Below, one piece after another: positions 41,607 through 48,567 of a stretch of 64,000 bases of DNA. Source of the DNA: an uncultured Candidatus Binatia bacterium (lineage in GTDB: Bacteria > Desulfobacterota > Binatia > HRBIN30); contig CAZHQG010000007.1 in NCBI GenBank assembly GCA_964534275.1, positions 27,202 through 91,201 of the forward strand, given 5' to 3'. The first letter of the stretch is position 1; each line of letters begins with the position of its first letter. Made by a program: the position numbers and the translations under genes. The notes beneath the pieces were generated by a model. The model was not told where the DNA came from, did not search any database, and was given only the letters and a program-made list of their open reading frames with translations.

Positions 41607-42428
41607 CTAGCGCTCCAGTCGGACTGCCGATTCCACAGGTTGCCCGAGAAACAAGGAGCCTACCTTTATAAAGCGCTCGGGTGCGTCGGTGACGAAAAAG
41701 CTCAGGGTACCGCCGTTGTCCTTGCGCGCCAGCTTTTGCTGGCGGAGCAGCGCTCGTACGGCCTGAGCGGTGGTGCCGGCAGAGTCCACTAAAGTGACCG
41801 TAGGCCCGAGGACTTCGGCAATGACCCCGGCCAGCAATGGGTAGTGTGTGCAGCCAAGCACCAGGGTGTCGATCCCGCTGCGGCGCAAGCTTGCCAGGTA
41901 CCGCCGCGCGGCAGCTCGCGCCACGTCGTTTTCGGTCCACCCTTCCTCGGCCAGCGGGACGAACAACGGGCATGCACGCGTGTAAATCTCCAGGTCGGGG
42001 CGCAGTGCTTTCAGCGCGCGAGTGTAGGCGTTGCTGGCGATGGTCGCTTCGGTGCCGATCACTCCGACTTTGCCATTGCGGGTGGCTCGTACTGCTGCTT
42101 GTGCTCCCGGCTCGATCACCCCAATGACGGGCACGGGCAGTTGCTGTTCGAGCTCTGGTAGGGCCACGGCGGAAACGCTGTTGCACGCAACCACCAAACA
42201 CTTGATGCCTTTGTCGAGCAAAAACGCAGCATTTTCTTGGGCGTAACGGCAAATGGTCTCGGGAGACTTCGTGCCGTACGGGGTGCGTGCAGTATCCCCA
42301 AGGTACACGATGTCTTCGTGGGGCAGCAGCCGTGCCAGTGCACGGACCACGGTGAGGCCACCGATGCCGGAATCGAAGACCCCGATAGCCGCCGACGCGG
42401 GGGGTCGTGAGGCGCGTTGTTGCCTCAT
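41607..42428 (-). CDS. murI: Glutamate racemase
   Basis: IGVFDSGIGGLTV, YGTKS, VACNSVS, LVLGCTHYP. Confidence 0.96.
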   Translation of the reverse strand: MRQQRASRPPASAAIGVFDSGIGGLTVVRALARLLPHEDIVYLGDTARTPYGTKSPETICRYAQENAAFLLDKGIKCLVVACNSVSAVALPELEQQLPVPVIGVIEPGAQAAVRATRNGKVGVIGTEATIASNAYTRALKALRPDLEIYTRACPLFVPLAEEGWTENDVARAAARRYLASLRRSGIDTLVLGCTHYPLLAGVIAEVLGPTVTLVDSAGTTAQAVRALLRQQKLARKDNGGTLSFFVTDAPERFIKVGSLFLGQPVESAVRLER

Positions 42429-43504
42429 TTGGGCGTACCGACGAGTCGTGCTGCGACTTCTTGATCCGTCGGCACTTCTCCAAAGGTTTTCTCCCACACT
42501 CCCGCCGGCTCCATGCAAATGTATCGGGGAATCGCCGGGTCCCACCGGCGCAGCCATTCGAGAAGCGTGCGGTACATCGTCAGCCGTAGGCCACGCCAAG
42601 CGCGGTGTTTTCCGTCTGGACCAGCAACGAGTTCTCCGGTCATCAAAGTCCAGCCACGACTGCGTTCCTTCATTGCGCGCTTCAAGCCTGGGCTGAGTCG
42701 CAAATGGCCAAGGCTCACCCAGGCAACGCGACTTGGATTCACGCGTTCGACCAAGCGGCGAAGCACGGCAACGTACTCCTCTTCCCACTGCGGCAGGGCA
42801 ATCAGCGGGTCGAAATGAAAGGCTACGCGGAAGCCAGCTTGCTGCACCCGCTCGGCAGCCGCCAAACGTTCGTCCAGAGACGCAGTTCCGGGCTCCTCGT
42901 CGCGAATGACGGACGGGGCGTTGAGCGACCAGGCCACCACAACGTTTTCGACTGGCGCAAAGGCAAGCAACCCTTCCACGGCCGCACTCTTGGTTTTGAG
43001 CTCCAGAACCGCGTTCGGTCGCTCTGCGAAAAACGGCACGAGGATGCGCGTGTGTTCCGTCAGCGCGTCGAGAGCGAGACTATCGATCAGCTCTCCGGTC
43101 CCGATGCGAAAGCGCCTGTTTGGATGGCGACGCAGTACGTCATCCACTTCCGCAAGCGCTTCTTCCACGTTCGTAAACAGGCGCAGGCCCGGGCTGTGCG
43201 CGAGGTACTCCTGCAAAAAGCAGTAGCTGCAGTCGAAGGGGCAGTTGGCGCCCAGATTCACGACGAGGTAGTTGCAGCAAACGAGGCCGGGTGTGCCTGC
43301 AGGACAGTGGTGAAGAAACGATCCGCGATGGCGCATCAGGACAAGTTGCCGTTTCCCCGCGGCGAAACCGAAATGTTCCAGCTTGAGGGGCGGGTCGTAC
43401 GACTGCACCGGCACGTCTTGGTAGGCACGGCGCACGTTCTCCGCGATGCGGGAACGCTCGCTGCCGCGTTCGATCCAGATCTTGTCGGGACGGTACGAAG
43501 TCAC
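42425..43504 (-). CDS. Radical SAM protein, spore photoproduct lyase (SplB)-like
   Basis: CPFDCSYCFLQ (CxxxCxxC) after CP..CC; GTGELIDSL, LELKTKS, WSLN, FHFDP, YICME. Confidence 0.85.
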   Translation of the reverse strand: MTSYRPDKIWIERGSERSRIAENVRRAYQDVPVQSYDPPLKLEHFGFAAGKRQLVLMRHRGSFLHHCPAGTPGLVCCNYLVVNLGANCPFDCSYCFLQEYLAHSPGLRLFTNVEEALAEVDDVLRRHPNRRFRIGTGELIDSLALDALTEHTRILVPFFAERPNAVLELKTKSAAVEGLLAFAPVENVVVAWSLNAPSVIRDEEPGTASLDERLAAAERVQQAGFRVAFHFDPLIALPQWEEEYVAVLRRLVERVNPSRVAWVSLGHLRLSPGLKRAMKERSRGWTLMTGELVAGPDGKHRAWRGLRLTMYRTLLEWLRRWDPAIPRYICMEPAGVWEKTFGEVPTDQEVAARLVGTPK

Positions 43505-44046
43505 GGAACTCCCTCTAGCAAGGCAAACACCTCTTTCCCGGCAGCACTGCGCGCCCACTGGAGGGCGGCTTCTAGCGAGGCGACGAGTTCGGCTTGGCTA
43601 CGGCCTGAGCAGGTGATGGAAATTTGGTCGCCCTCCAGACATGGAGGCAGGGTCACGCGTACCGTTGGCGGGAGACCGGCGCAGCGTACCAGTTCCTTCG
43701 CGCGCGCTTCGGCAGCGCTCAATGCGGGAAATCGCCAGCGACGTAACACCTGTTTCACCGCGACGAGGCGGGTGTTCCGGCTGGTTGCAGCAGACCGTGC
43801 CTGCAAAATCTCCGGCCGGTTCAGAACGCCGGCGATGCTCGTTCCCTCGCGGACGGCAATTTCTTCCGCCCACTCCCACAAATCGCGCAGCTGGTTTTGT
43901 CCCAGCCGGAGGGATGTCGCGAGTTCGTAAAGCGTCCGTGCGTCGGCCTCGTCCAAGCCGAGCCAATGCTCCACCAGAGCGGGGTGAAATGCACGCTCGC
44001 GAGTATAGTCCTGCACGGCTTTTCGGAGACTTGCTGGCAGCGTCAT
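43501..44046 (-). CDS. Hypothetical helical protein (resembles the C-terminal part of ParB-like proteins found beside SplB-like genes)
   Basis: Coupled at both ends by 4-nt overlaps; motif L...RFP.L...E....LPP..RVTLPPCLEG. Confidence 0.6.
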   Translation of the reverse strand: MTLPASLRKAVQDYTRERAFHPALVEHWLGLDEADARTLYELATSLRLGQNQLRDLWEWAEEIAVREGTSIAGVLNRPEILQARSAATSRNTRLVAVKQVLRRWRFPALSAAEARAKELVRCAGLPPTVRVTLPPCLEGDQISITCSGRSQAELVASLEAALQWARSAAGKEVFALLEGVP

Positions 44047-44921
44047 GCTGCTGCCTCTGCTAGCTGGGCCGGCCACCGGGTTGCAACGTACTCACGAGCG
44101 GCGGCAGCAAGCTCGCGGTATCGTTGCGCCTCGTTGTGGCGCCCGCGTTTTTCTGCTCCGGCCGCGAGAACGGCACATTTCGATTCGATCGTGTCGGCGG
44201 TCGCGCGCGCCCGGTGCGCATCCAAGATGTCGGAAAGTAGCAAGCGTAGAAGGCTAGCCACGCGAAAGCGATCCATCCCCCAAAAGCAGCGGGAAAGTTG
44301 GTCTTCGTGACCCCCGCGTTTCAGCACGAGGGCTTCGTCGAGCAAACCGAACTGCTCGTGGACGGCGATGCGCAACCACAGGTCGTAGTCTTCGCAAGCA
44401 GGTAAACTCGGGTCGAACGGCCCGTAGCGATCCCAAACAGAACGATGGAGCAGGACGGCGGATGGGCTGACCAAGCACCGCTGCAACGAGGGGAGGAAAA
44501 TATCGCCGGCGAGTTTGCGGTGAACCGCGCGCGGATTGACGAACCGCCCGTTCCGAATCCATACCTCCTGCGTCTGACTGATGGGTGTACCGGTGGATTC
44601 GGCAAAGGCCAAATGACGTGCGAGTTTGTGCGGACGCCACAGGTCATCCGAATCCAGGAAGGCGAGCCATTCCCCGCGAGCCAGGGCTACCCCGACGTTG
44701 CGGGCCGTGGACACGCCACAGCGTGTTTGCAGGCGCTCGATCCGCACGGCGCAGCCGAAACGGGAGACCAGATCGTCGGCGGTGCCGTCCGTAGAGCCAT
44801 CGTCGACCACGATGAGCTCCCAATCGGTGCGTGCGAGCCCCTGTTGGGCCAGCACCGAGGCAACCGCTTCGGCAACGAGTTGGCGGCGATTGTAGGTAGG
44901 GATGATGACGCTGGCCAGCAC
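44043..44921 (-). CDS. Glycosyltransferase family 2 (GT-A)
   Basis: SVIIPTYNR, IVVDDGSTDGT, GVSTARN.G, AFLDSDD, ACEDYDLWLR, GGHEDQLS. Confidence 0.92.
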   Translation of the reverse strand: MLASVIIPTYNRRQLVAEAVASVLAQQGLARTDWELIVVDDGSTDGTADDLVSRFGCAVRIERLQTRCGVSTARNVGVALARGEWLAFLDSDDLWRPHKLARHLAFAESTGTPISQTQEVWIRNGRFVNPRAVHRKLAGDIFLPSLQRCLVSPSAVLLHRSVWDRYGPFDPSLPACEDYDLWLRIAVHEQFGLLDEALVLKRGGHEDQLSRCFWGMDRFRVASLLRLLLSDILDAHRARATADTIESKCAVLAAGAEKRGRHNEAQRYRELAAAAREYVATRWPAQLAEAAA

Positions 44922-45332: not shown

Positions 45333-45412
45333 GTCATCACGGGTTGCGGCGGAGACAGGGTGCTTGCGCGTGTGGTCGGGATGCGAAAAAAGGGCTCCGT
45401 TGGGTGCGAGCG

Positions 45413-47209
45413 ATGGCGAGAAAGAAACCGGTGGTAACCAACGCGGACGTCGCCCGTGTCTTGCGGGAGATTGCGCTCCTTCTGGAGATGGAAGGCGTGC
45501 CGTTCAAGCCGCGGGCGTACGAAAAAGCTGCGTATGCAGTGGAAAGCCTTTCAGAACCCATCGGGGAGCTGCTCGAGAAAGGCGGCGAGCGGGCGATCGA
45601 GGAGCTTCCAGGAGTAGGGAAGAGTATTGCCGAGAAAATCGTGACCCTGGTGCGCACGGGAAGGCTGCCGTACTACGAAGAATTGCATGCCAAGGTGCCG
45701 GTGGATTTAGCGGGTCTGAGCGCGATCGAGGGGTTGGGTCCGAAAAATATCAAGGTCCTGTACGAGAAGCTGGGCATCCGCACGGTCGAGGAACTGGAAG
45801 CGGCCGCGCGCGCTGGAAAAATTCGCTCGCTTCCGCACTTCGGTGAGAAAAGCGAGCAGAAGATCTTGCGGGGCATTGAGTTTCTCAAGCGGAGCCAAGG
45901 CCGGTTTTTGCTGGGTGCGGTCTTGCCTCTGGTGCGAGAGATCGAGCGGCGGCTAGGGCAAATCCGAGGCGTGGAAAAAGTCGCAATCGCGGGATCGATT
46001 CGCCGGTGCAAGGAAACCGTAGGGGATGGCGATCTGCTCGTAGTGGCTTCGGATCCGGACCGAGTGATGGATGCGTTTGTCTCGATGCCTGAGGTCCAGT
46101 ACGTGCACGGCAAGGGCCATACGAAGTCGAGCGTGAAGCTGCACATGGGGATGGATGTCGACCTTCGCGTGGTGCCGGCGGAAAGTTGGGGTGCGGCGTT
46201 GAGCTATTTCACCGGAAGCAAGGCGCACAACGTAGCGTTGCGTCGGATCGCGATGGAACAAGGGCTGAAACTCAACGAGTACGGGTTGTTTCGCGGCGAG
46301 CGCTCGATTGCCGGGCGAACCGAAGAAGAAGTGTACCATGCGCTCGGAATGGAATGGATTCCTCCGGAGCTGCGCGAAGATGCTGGAGAGATCGAGGCTG
46401 CGCGTGCGGGAACGTTACCGCGGCTTGTCGAGTACGGGCAGGTGCGCGGAGACCTACAAGTGCAGACGAATTGGTCGGATGGTGCGCATTCGATCGAAGA
46501 GATGGCTGAGGCTGCGCGGCGGCTCGGACGGGAATACATCGCCATCACCGATCACACCCGTGCGCTCGCCATGGTGGGGTTGGACGCGAGCAAGCTCCGC
46601 GAGCAAATGGCTTACATCGACCGGTTGAACAGCAAGCTCCGTGGAATTCGCATTCTGAAAGGGGCAGAGGTGAACATCGATCGCGACGGGAGCCTCGACA
46701 TCGACGACGAGACCCTAGCGCAGCTGGACGTCGTCGGCATCGCGGTGCATTCGTACTTCCACCTCCCCCGTGCAGAGCAAACCCGACGCATCGTACGCGC
46801 CATGGAGAATCCGCATGCGGACATCTTGTTTCATCCAACGGGGCGCGCGCTCCTCAAGAGGGAGCCGTACGATGTGGATATGGAGGAGCTGTTTGCCGCA
46901 GCCGTGCGCACCGGTACGGTGATGGAAATCGATGGGTACCCTGAGCGCTTGGACCTCCGCGACGAGCACGTGCGGAAAGCGATCCAAGCCGGCGTGAAAT
47001 TGGTGATCGATACGGACGCCCACAGCATCCACCATTTGGACTATTTGTTTTTCGGCATTGCGACGGCACGGCGTGGTTGGGCGACCGCTGCGGATGTGAT
47101 CAATACCTTGCCGTTGGAGGAGTTTCTGTCGCAGCTCAAGGACAAACGTGGCGCCGGAGTGTCCTCGCCGAAGCGCTCTACGAAAAAACGCCGCTCGGGT
47201 AGCGCGTGA
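45413..47209 (+). CDS. polX: DNA polymerase X with PHP domain
   Basis: FKPRAY.KAA, GVGKSIA, GLGPK, AGSIRR.KETVGDGDLL, VDLRVV, YFTGSKAHN, LNEYGLF; PHP motifs ITDH, HPTGR, TDAH. Confidence 0.95.
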   Translation: MARKKPVVTNADVARVLREIALLLEMEGVPFKPRAYEKAAYAVESLSEPIGELLEKGGERAIEELPGVGKSIAEKIVTLVRTGRLPYYEELHAKVPVDLAGLSAIEGLGPKNIKVLYEKLGIRTVEELEAAARAGKIRSLPHFGEKSEQKILRGIEFLKRSQGRFLLGAVLPLVREIERRLGQIRGVEKVAIAGSIRRCKETVGDGDLLVVASDPDRVMDAFVSMPEVQYVHGKGHTKSSVKLHMGMDVDLRVVPAESWGAALSYFTGSKAHNVALRRIAMEQGLKLNEYGLFRGERSIAGRTEEEVYHALGMEWIPPELREDAGEIEAARAGTLPRLVEYGQVRGDLQVQTNWSDGAHSIEEMAEAARRLGREYIAITDHTRALAMVGLDASKLREQMAYIDRLNSKLRGIRILKGAEVNIDRDGSLDIDDETLAQLDVVGIAVHSYFHLPRAEQTRRIVRAMENPHADILFHPTGRALLKREPYDVDMEELFAAAVRTGTVMEIDGYPERLDLRDEHVRKAIQAGVKLVIDTDAHSIHHLDYLFFGIATARRGWATAADVINTLPLEEFLSQLKDKRGAGVSSPKRSTKKRRSGSA

Positions 47210-47724
47210 AGTGGTGGACCGGTGTGTGCGCATCCAGTATGAACCGGCCCATGGATTGGTTGTGTGGCCTGGCCGCGGAGACGCAAGTGGAAACGCCCGA
47301 CGGCCCGATGGAGATTCGCAAAGTGGCGGGAAAAGAAATTCCAGTGTTCAGTCGCGACGCCAATGGGCGCGTGCGCTTTCGCATGATGCGACAGGTGCGG
47401 TGCACGGGAGCCTCGGAACCGGTGTTACGCGTGTCCTTGGAAAACGGGTGGTCGTTCCGAGCCGTGCCTCGTCAAGGAGTGTTTTTGGCCGAAGGAACGA
47501 TTGTGACGCTGGCTGAGCTTGCTCCCGGTGTATTGCTGTATCCGGCCTTTCACTACCCGAAGGGCTACCGTTTTCGCACGGATGGCGGGGAAGAACGGGA
47601 GTCGGCGCACGGATGGCGCGTGGAATCGATAGAGGCTGGCGGCGACGCGGAGGTGTTTTCCCTGCACGTGCCGCCCGAACGGTGCTTCTTCCTCAGCGCC
47701 GGAGTGCTGTGCTGTAGCGAGTAG
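47206..47724 (+). CDS. Stand-alone Hint (intein-like) domain protein with degenerate splicing motifs
   Basis: CGLAAETQVETPDG (block A-like), VLRVSLENGWSFRAVP (block B-like), RVESIEAGGDAEVFSL.V (block F-like), FFLSAGVLCCSE (block G-like); start could be 47206, 47239 or 47251. Confidence 0.75.
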   Translation: MKWWTGVCASSMNRPMDWLCGLAAETQVETPDGPMEIRKVAGKEIPVFSRDANGRVRFRMMRQVRCTGASEPVLRVSLENGWSFRAVPRQGVFLAEGTIVTLAELAPGVLLYPAFHYPKGYRFRTDGGEERESAHGWRVESIEAGGDAEVFSLHVPPERCFFLSAGVLCCSE

Positions 47725-47748: not shown

Positions 47749-48567
47749 TCAGTCGTCGCGCCCTTGAAACTTACGCACGACCGTGCGCGCCAGTCCGGGG
47801 AGATCGGAAATGATTCCGTCGACCCCAAGTCCCAGGACCGACCGGATTTCGGCAGGATCGTTGAGGGTCCACACGTGAACCTCCAAGCCCAGGTCGTGCG
47901 CCGCTTGAACCACATCGGGGCGAACAATTTCGATGTCTCCCACCCGCACTGGAACCTGCAGAGCAATCCCGGGAGGGCGGTAGTCGCTCCATCGAGCTTC
48001 GGTGACCCGGGTGAGAAAATCGACGACATCCGCGGCGGAGAAGCTGGTCGTGATCTCGGGGGCTTGTTGACGCACATGGTCGAGGATTTCCCCCTTTTCC
48101 GCGGCAACAAGGACGCGATGGGTTGCATCCAAGCGTCGAATCGTGGCGATCACTTCATCGATGAGACCAGGATCGTTTTCTTTGATCTCCACGTTGCACG
48201 TTGCCAGCGGAAATTGTTGCAACACCGCGTCGAACGTGGGGACACGCACACCATGCCCTCGAAAGGGGAAGTCGCGTCCATCCCGAGAGAAGTGATATCC
48301 TGCATCCAGGCGTTCGATTTGCCTGAGGGTGTGATCGCGCACCAAACCGCTGCCATTGGTGGTGCGGTCGAGCGTGTCGTCGTGCAGGACCACCACAAAG
48401 CCGTCGCGAGTCGGGTGGAGGTCGAACTCCAGCACTTCGGCGCCCAAGGCTAAGGCGAGGGCGAACGAGGGCAACGTGTTTTCGGGCGCTTGTCCCGCAG
48501 CCCCGCGGTGGCCGAAGACGCGCGGAGGAGGAGTTGGGTAAAAGCGATGTGGCATGCGCTCCCGCAT
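47749..48567 (-). CDS. Glycerophosphodiester phosphodiesterase
   Basis: FGHRGA...PENTL, LEFDLH.T.DG..VV.HDD.LDRTT, NVEIK, VHVWTLND, VDGIISD. Confidence 0.93.
   Translation of the reverse strand: MRERMPHRFYPTPPPRVFGHRGAAGQAPENTLPSFALALALGAEVLEFDLHPTRDGFVVVLHDDTLDRTTNGSGLVRDHTLRQIERLDAGYHFSRDGRDFPFRGHGVRVPTFDAVLQQFPLATCNVEIKENDPGLIDEVIATIRRLDATHRVLVAAEKGEILDHVRQQAPEITTSFSAADVVDFLTRVTEARWSDYRPPGIALQVPVRVGDIEIVRPDVVQAAHDLGLEVHVWTLNDPAEIRSVLGLGVDGIISDLPGLARTVVRKFQGRDD

Follow-up and report, generated by a model that had tools for sequence, protein, structure and literature searches.

Inteins are usually seen as selfish elements, and their retention for a host function in bacteria is in question. 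The well-known non-splicing uses of the Hint fold, found in Hedgehog, the bacterial intein-like (BIL) domains, the pretoxin Hint domains and yeast HO, retain autoprocessing or nuclease activity. The subject of this study is a small gene on the forward strand of a 64,000-nucleotide stretch of DNA (the window) from an uncultured Candidatus Binatia bacterium (assembly GCA_964534275.1, contig CAZHQG010000007.1). The combined evidence gives good support to the view that it encodes a free-standing, catalytically dead Hint protein that is related to inteins and kept by selection. It would be a rare bacterial case of an intein apparently retained for another job.

The class 1 mini-inteins, such as those of NrdJ, GyrA, DnaE, DnaB and RecA, share with the window protein the fold and the order of the A, B, F and G blocks. 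They are of similar size (~140-160 aa), the closest one has the same linker length and the identity to the closest ones is 28-38%. The window protein differs in that it is not embedded in a host protein and its splicing residues are replaced. Its family also has its own motif, [FW]x[YF]PxGY, a conserved Arg50 and Arg59, and a split from the inteins found in 200/200 bootstraps.

The BIL domains, of A and B types, were reportedly described by Amitai et al. in 2003. They lie within larger, often variable or secreted proteins and autoprocess; the nucleophile at their N-terminus is kept, and the C-terminus usually has Asn or Gln. They are likewise bacterial Hint domains outside the canonical inteins, some without a +1 nucleophile. 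In contrast, the window protein stands alone, with Gly at position 1 and neither Asn nor Gln at the C-terminus.

In yeast HO, a zinc finger accompanies a LAGLIDADG endonuclease domain. A protein of the HO or WHO type would have the LAGLIDADG domain inserted in the Hint domain; the protein described here is 157-161 aa long with a linker of mini-intein length. Literature searches on free-standing, stand-alone or degenerate Hint or intein proteins yielded no such bacterial family, only yeast HO and WHO. HO and the WHO elements are presented as domesticated intein-like proteins (PMC7282813). The likeness is that of a free-standing gene which arose from an intein-like element and was kept for a host function (PMC7282813). 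HO is a eukaryotic site-specific endonuclease, whereas the Binatia protein is a bare Hint domain without a nuclease module. The Hint-fold family has no name, and the nearest concept is yeast HO, a domesticated intein-like endonuclease (PMC7282813).

The family stands apart as a bare Hint domain without catalytic residues, under purifying selection, kept across a phylum and with sister clades that are part-catalytic in their residues. It provides a graded natural series for the study of non-splicing Hint functions and of intein loss or domestication. A thermophile-derived, catalytically inert mini-intein scaffold may also be of use in protein engineering.

Evidence for the Hint fold

The gene lies as follows; residues are numbered throughout by the mechanical open reading frame (ORF) of 172 aa.

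47206-47724, + strand: mechanical ORF, 172 aa
47239..47724, + strand: free-standing Hint-fold coding sequence, probable true extent, 161 aa (homologue lengths, conserved ATGs, AlphaFold2, Foldseek)
47722-47724, + strand: stop codon of the Hint gene, TAG

A preliminary description, made from the sequence alone, had reported this ORF, and both its position and its translation were as written there. It had also claimed a Hint-like layout, which could be checked by structure prediction and profile searches against Hint folds. Both approaches returned mini-inteins. The AlphaFold2 model, built with the family alignment as input, has a pLDDT of 93.2 and a pTM of 0.86. Foldseek found 61 matches in the PDB at E <= 0.001; mini-inteins and BIL domains match at E values of 1.5e-9 to 1e-6 and TM scores of 0.7-0.87. 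The mini-inteins of Ssp DnaB, Npu DnaE and Mtu RecA lie at E 1.5e-9 to 1e-7 (TM 0.72-0.87), and that of Ssp DnaE is also among the matches. When the model was searched against a viral structure library, mostly Hint- or intein-containing proteins were returned.

The family profile gave 19 matches in the PDB, of which the 18 best are inteins (best E 4e-4), and its alignment to the DnaE inteins is collinear across the N-terminal and C-terminal regions. Blocks A, B, F and G are collinear with those of inteins both in the profile alignment and in an alignment with 17 bona fide mini-inteins, which came from the search with the family profile. Single-sequence matches are weak, at 19.8 bits for NCBIfam TIGR01445 intein_Nterm (cut-off 24.5) and E ~0.05 for DnaE inteins in the PDB. 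The protein is 38% identical to an NrdJ intein over 72 aa and 28% identical to a GyrA mini-intein over 123 aa, the latter without gaps.

A Pfam scan of the window protein assigned no family, the sole entry being DUF7406 at E 0.2, and neither Hint_2 (PF13403) nor Intein_splicing (PF14890) matched it. Among 15 family members there are weak matches to Intein_splicing in 8/15 (best E 7e-4) and to Hint_2 in 4/15 (best E 0.002). When the window protein and four clade representatives were scanned against Pfam, NCBIfam, PADLOC and PHROGs, no family passed the threshold, and the last two gave no defence-system or phage-family match for the Hint protein. The resemblance to Hint domains is beyond chance and, on the predicted model, the window ORF is a Hint-fold protein.

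Loss of the splicing residues

The equivalents of the intein blocks in the window protein are:

47263..47307, + strand: block A equivalent, C-GLAAETQVETPDGP (hidden Markov model alignment to the Ssp DnaE intein; alignment with the 17 mini-inteins)
47263-47265, + strand: Cys20, intein position -1
47266-47268, + strand: Gly21, at the place of the nucleophile Cys1
47464..47475, + strand: block B equivalent, VPRQ (Val87-Pro-Arg-Gln90) for TxxH (T-P-x-H) (profile and multiple alignments)
47650..47664, + strand: block F equivalent, EVFSL, inteins having D-V-Y-D (alignment with the 17 mini-inteins)
47680..47721, + strand: end of block F and block G equivalent, RCFFLSAGVLCCSE (profile and multiple alignments)

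A class 1 intein has Cys, Ser or Thr at position 1, where Gly21 stands in the window protein. The Thr-x-x-His of block B is replaced by Val-Pro-Arg-Gln, with Gln90 at the position of the catalytic His. In block F, Phe151-Ser152 occupies the place of Tyr-Asp, and Ser152 that of the catalytic Asp. In block G, where inteins read V-H-N followed by Ser or Cys, the window protein reads C-C-S and then Glu and a stop. Cys170-Ser171 thus takes the place of His-Asn, and Glu172 is at +1, so that the C-terminal Asn and the Cys, Ser or Thr at +1 of class 1 inteins give way to Cys-Ser-Glu-stop. In place of exteins, 4-8 residues stand before Cys20 and one residue after the Asn equivalent. Class 3 inteins use a block F Cys nucleophile of a Trp-Cys-Thr triplet; the corresponding residue here is Ser152, and mostly S, G, A or T in the family. 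The mini-intein alignment confirmed each of the substitutions that had been listed before (Gly, VPRQ, FS, CS and E). Every residue required for protein splicing is, by this alignment, lost in the window protein.

The linker hairpin

Two features lie between blocks B and F:

47548..47595, + strand: linker hairpin FHYPKGYRFRTDGGEE at the homing-endonuclease insertion site (conservation, GyrA alignment, model)
47548-47568, + strand: family-specific motif [FW]-x-[YF]-P-x-G-Y on the linker hairpin

The preliminary description had taken FHYPKGYRFRTDGGEE for a short insert at the site where homing endonucleases insert. The site is right, but no sequence is added there, as the GyrA mini-intein has a linker of the same length and aligns across FHYPKGYRFRTDGGEE without a gap. 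Because of this gapless alignment, the hairpin is the ordinary linker of the nearest mini-intein subgroup. The model contains no extra domain, in keeping with the linker of mini-intein length and the protein length of 157-161 aa. Pro118, Gly120 and Tyr121 of the motif are conserved in 85-94% of 144 family members (Tyr121 in 136/144). The linker is the lowest-confidence part of the AlphaFold2 model, at pLDDT 79-83.

Family size and conserved positions

In a first search, 14 homologues of 49-99% identity were found, all 157-161 aa long, without a Pfam domain and named "hypothetical protein". An exhaustive profile search gave 877 proteins at E < 1e-3, of which the top scorers are free-standing and 150-170 aa long. 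Below ~100 bits the profile picks up true inteins that lie within NrdJ, GyrA and further large proteins, and the longer matches are solely such inteins or gene-call artefacts. In a second search, word-indexed and run from a broader alignment, at least 181 clusters were found at E < 1e-8. Among the 120 clusters listed, all members are free-standing, 115-203 aa long (nearly all 152-187 aa) and without an informative name, and a Pfam match was found in one.

Residue frequencies were taken from an alignment of 144 family members:

Position 20 (intein -1): Cys in 57%
Position 21 (nucleophile, position 1): Gly, Ala or Arg; Cys in 11%
Position 90 (block B His): Gln in 97, His in 47, no other residue
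Position 152 (block F Asp): mostly Ser, Gly, Ala or Thr
Position 160 (block F): Cys in 40%
Position 169 (block G): Cys in 67%
Position 170 (penultimate His): Lys or Arg in 74%
Position 171 (C-terminal Asn): mostly Ala or Ser

The block F Asp and the C-terminal Asn are absent from the commonest residues and from all listed signatures of these members. The most conserved family-specific features are Arg50 (130/144), Arg59 (129/144) and the linker motif, and the core clade has 39 invariant columns.

Four clades are visible among the aligned members. The clade of the window protein starts with M-x(2-8)-C-[GA]-LAAET, has Gln90 and ends in C[KRQ]AE. The three sister clades keep Cys1 and/or the block B His or differ in the leader, as follows:

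GC clade (P0024, P0224-P0233, P0238; locus L026, 5001-5489): canonical Cys1, block B His and a leader of ~10 aa
MPG clade (P0028, P0029, P0234-P0240; locus L020, 6001-6462): Met-Pro-Gly-[LI]-T-x-D-S start, virtually leaderless
Lys/Pro-leader clade (P0042, P0241-P0263; loci L021, 6001-6525, and L023, 6001-6531): Lys/Pro-rich leader and Arg at position 1

The leader of the GC clade has a second Cys four residues upstream of Cys1 (R-x-C-x-x-G-C-L-T-A-E-S), and its proteins end exactly at the Asn-equivalent position with Ala (..GVLCKA-stop). From these residues, thioester formation or cleavage of the leader might still be possible in this clade. The CxxxC spacing is reminiscent of intein redox traps. 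In locus L026 there is a 4-nt overlap between the end of a zinc alcohol dehydrogenase gene and the start of the Hint gene, and the next gene encodes NnrU. The MPG clade keeps the block B His; removal of its Met would leave a free N-terminal Pro at intein position -1 of the former active site. Leaders of the Lys/Pro type include KPKKPKKPxPPTL[ST]R and MEKPKKPKKPAPPTRSR. Near the genes of that clade are a ClpB gene and, in divergent orientation, a conserved hypothetical gene (145-150 aa).

Selection, origin and distribution

Nearly all pairs with dS < 1.1 give a ratio of nonsynonymous to synonymous substitution (dN/dS) of 0.14-0.32, as calculated by the Nei-Gojobori method (NG86) for the conserved core. 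An example is the pair L005/L008, with 0.165 at a dS of 0.52; the pairs with L013 reach up to 0.52. In the more divergent pairs dS is saturated, yet the values are consistent with purifying selection. By this measure the family is under purifying selection, not decay, and the dN/dS near 1 that would have marked a decaying gene was not seen.

A neighbour-joining (NJ) tree of Poisson distances, with 48 family representatives and the 17 true mini-inteins, separates the family from the inteins in 200/200 bootstraps. The inteins attach beside the His-containing clades, which is consistent with one origin followed by a gradual loss of the catalytic residues, if the tree may be rooted on the inteins. 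The description of a domesticated, non-splicing Hint protein is upheld by these 200/200 bootstraps, the dN/dS values, the 181 or more clusters and the free-standing state of the listed members.

The family appears confined to Binatia (Binatota) as far as named records show. The named members, and the species-representative genomes with the gene, are Binatia, "bacterium HR30" or "delta proteobacterium" metagenome-assembled genomes (MAGs). Most of the named homologues from the first search come from Candidatus Binatia MAGs, several with hot-spring-style isolate names. A look-up of 10 members in exact-sequence clusters gave almost no names. The ClpB beside a Lys/Pro-leader member, on an 8.1-Mb contig, has its closest named relatives in Candidatus Binatia at 89% identity. 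Two labels are exceptions, a Margulisiibacteriota contig (DATKMS010000480.1, with L005/L016) and a Kryptonia protein (P0208). The Margulisiibacteriota-labelled contig shares its gene neighbourhood with other contigs (L008, L011), mostly unnamed or Binatia-labelled. It is probably mis-binned, since this neighbourhood is the same as that of the Binatia-type loci.

Possible functions

The best overall explanation, held with slightly better than even confidence, is a cytoplasmic Hint protein of ~157-161 aa with a single origin, which has lost its splicing residues and serves as a non-catalytic binding or adaptor module. The same confidence covers, as part of that whole, the descent of the family from mini-inteins or from a recent ancestor shared with them. 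For the mechanism taken by itself, action as a binding or adaptor module without catalysis stands at roughly even odds on the conservation pattern.

The Hint cleft, the linker surface or both would be reused for binding. One candidate surface for a partner or ligand is the remodelled cleft of the former active site, at the junction of the N- and C-termini; its conserved residues are position 90 (Gln or His), position 170 (Lys or Arg) and, specific to the family, Arg50 and Arg59. A second candidate is the linker hairpin with its aromatic motif [FW]x[YF]PxGY. The reading as a binding module follows from the restriction of position 90 to Gln or His, the basic position 170, the conserved C-terminal tail and the new aromatic linker motif. 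These conserved residues are a candidate for one joint surface. The window protein is acidic (pI 5.7) and the family median pI is 6.0, and a general nucleic-acid binder was ruled out on charge. No signal peptide was evident on inspection of the N-termini.

Several points weigh against a binding or adaptor module restricted to one phylum. The gene context, at 49 loci, does not point to any partner. A pure scaffold role leaves unexplained why ~85% of the Gln-type clade retain Cys20. The sister clades with Cys1 and the block B His may retain some chemistry in part of the family. The restriction to Binatia, in the public assemblies searched, rests on a few named MAGs and one ClpB neighbour.

An extended reading joins a stepwise domestication of a mini-intein in one phylum to a thiol-gated cleft and co-expression with the neighbouring polymerase gene polX, and in this joint form is improbable. 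The basal clades, with Cys1, the block B His and a leader containing Cys, may still be capable of thioester formation, or of releasing or transferring a short peptide. The clade of the window protein would have turned the cleft into a thiol-gated (Cys20/Cys160) site for a ligand or partner. In the thermophilic Binatia, the protein would be expressed with PolX as part of a response to stress or damage. If true, this would be a new non-splicing function of the Hint fold in bacteria.

The suggestion of a metal or redox sensor, made in the preliminary description, has fared poorly. The N- and C-termini of Hint folds converge at the active site, and Cys20, Cys160 and Cys169/170 at the converged termini could act as a reversible disulfide or metal switch. 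The window protein has five Cys, three of them within the terminal blocks, and Cys20 and Cys160 tend to occur together (both in 52 members, Cys20 only in 30, Cys160 only in 6). Engineered and natural redox traps of inteins exist, and PDB 3nzm is among the Foldseek matches. However, the clustering of Cys at the termini, present as described in the window protein, is not a conserved trait: at 57%, 40% and 67% for positions 20, 160 and 169, no Cys is invariant across the 144 members. Cys66 (~9%) and Cys170 (~1%) are minority features. Cys169 is Leu in five close polX-linked relatives (P0002, P0004, P0006, P0210 and P0217), and its co-occurrence with Cys20 is weak (odds ratio ~1.5). Three clades are without the N-terminal Cys, the association of Cys20 with Cys160 is confounded by phylogeny, and there is no His- or Cys-rich metal motif. 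A Cys-based switch in the clade of the window protein is weakened by these conservation data and is considered unlikely.

Residual autoprocessing would be a Hint-type N-terminal cleavage, or a thioester transfer of the short leader, through a Cys beside the scissile position. Cys at -1 is found in 57% of the family and Cys at position 1 in a further 11%. In the GC clade, a leader of ~10 aa goes together with the canonical Cys1 and the block B His, and the His-containing clades are nearest to the inteins when these are the outgroup in the NJ tree. Against this, the leader sequence is not conserved, and the window protein has Gly1, Val and Gln for the block B Thr and His, Ser152 and no C-terminal Asn. 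We know of no Hint mechanism that operates with this set of residues. Going by the residues kept, autoprocessing is quite improbable for the window protein and plausible for the GC clade.

Gene neighbourhood and polX

The genes on either side of the Hint gene are:

45413..47209, + strand: family X DNA polymerase with a PHP domain (PolX), upstream and co-directional (Pfam HHH_8, DNA_pol_B_thumb, PHP)
47749..48567, - strand: glycerophosphodiester phosphodiesterase (GDPD), convergent and downstream (Pfam GDPD, E 3e-45)

In the lineage of the window, the Hint gene is probably co-transcribed with polX, and its place there is probably a lineage-specific position, not a functional coupling. The window, L001/L002, L012/L029, L024, L025 and L028 share the order of polX, the Hint gene and, convergent with them, the GDPD gene. 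This order forms part of a collinear block of 10-12 kb with genes for an Asp/Glu racemase, a radical SAM protein of the spore photoproduct lyase (SPL) type, a GT2 glycosyltransferase, PolX, Hint, GDPD, a GMC oxidoreductase and a PAS kinase. As the entire block is collinear in one lineage, the adjacency to polX has no independent evidential value. Orthologues elsewhere lie upstream of a convergent CBS-Usp-V-type ATPase operon, beside genes for GlpX, cytochrome c, acyl-CoA dehydrogenase or CoA transferase or, in the GC clade, between those for zinc alcohol dehydrogenase and NnrU.

A role of the Hint protein as an accessory factor that works with the adjacent polymerase in DNA repair is therefore highly unlikely. 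The gene is co-directional with polX and 29-40 nt downstream of it, with no terminator found between them, and the arrangement is kept in six assemblies (window, L001, L012, L024, L025 and L028) at 57-99% protein identity. An SPL-type radical SAM gene is also nearby. But the 10-12 kb collinearity removes independent information from these observations, the orthologues of all other lineages stand elsewhere without a PolX gene nearby, and the protein is acidic and has no DNA-binding signature. The link to DNA repair drawn in the preliminary description rested on an adjacency seen in one collinear lineage, and the comparison of homologues and synteny that it had proposed did not bear the link out. 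Adjacency to polX should not be taken as a functional link in annotation.

Clustering of all neighbouring genes against each other at 19 loci left the Hint gene as the sole family common to all, and at 49 loci no neighbour family recurs across all of them, by which a conserved operon partner was ruled out. The most recurrent same-strand neighbour outside the polX lineage is an M16-family peptidase (~400 aa), directly upstream at seven loci (L011, L018, L030, L034, L044, L046 and L047) with a gap of 13-161 nt and differing downstream genes. An intein remnant within PolX was also ruled out: the two genes are in different frames, orthologues are at unrelated loci and the PolX homologues are equal in length.

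The weakest alternative, a decaying intein remnant or gene-calling artefact without function, would account for the loss of all catalytic residues, the lack of a Pfam or NCBIfam assignment and the many spurious ORFs that high-GC DNA yields, but is almost certainly wrong and largely refuted by the constant length of intact ORFs, present in at least 181 clusters, a dN/dS of 0.14-0.3, 39 invariant core-clade columns and a confident structure prediction.

The mechanical ORF of PolX starts at TTG 45344 and has 621 aa, ~25 residues more than its homologues of 595-596 aa. The start is probably ATG 45413 (MARKKPVVTNADVARVLREIA...), since the homologue lengths leave 45344-45412 as the excess stretch. 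Upstream of polX and divergent from it, at 42425-44921 on the - strand, are the SPL-type radical SAM gene, a gene for a protein of 180-191 aa and the GT2 glycosyltransferase gene. The first is related to spore photoproduct lyase (PF20903), and the 180-191 aa protein is conserved and without a Pfam family. These three are collinear in at least five related genomes. The position of the SPL gene next to PolX suggests a small DNA-damage repair neighbourhood.

Gene start and upstream region

Three features concern the start of the Hint gene:

47206..47238, + strand: 5' extension of the mechanical ORF, from GTG to the codon before ATG 47239 (homologues are without residues 1-11; CCG in L001)
47239, + strand: ATG, start of the 161-aa protein
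47251, + strand: alternative start ATG, which yields 157 aa with the same stop

A GTG start that overlaps the polX stop had been proposed. The overlap of GTG 47206 with that stop (TGA 47207-47209) is real, but the GTG is not conserved and is CCG in L001, where the first in-frame start is the equivalent of ATG 47239. The homologues begin 4-8 residues ahead of the conserved Cys, and residues 1-11 of the 172-aa ORF have no counterpart in them. By the homologue starts and the CCG of L001, GTG 47206 was ruled out as the start codon. In three related genomes (the window, L001 and L012) the first conserved in-frame starts are ATG 47239 and ATG 47251, within TCCAGTATG...ATG. Because residues 1-11 are unmatched in homologues and the upstream DNA shows this pattern in related genomes, the start of the Hint gene is most likely ATG 47239 or ATG 47251. 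The stretch 47206..47238 would then probably be outside the translated protein. The distance from the polX stop is 29 nt to ATG 47239 and 41 nt to ATG 47251, without overlap.

A promoter scan found no sigma-70-like promoter. The terminator scan gave two terminator-like matches, which is chance level, and found none between polX and the Hint gene. At 47214-47241, GTGGACC, 12 nt and then TCCAGTATG are invariant in the window, L001 and L012, and N9-ATG follows. The motif spans the intergenic region between polX and the Hint gene, and the proteins of the same three genomes are ~63-65% identical. GTGGACC lies 18 nt from ATG 47239, too distant for a standard Shine-Dalgarno sequence. The whole motif could be a translation-initiation or regulatory element.

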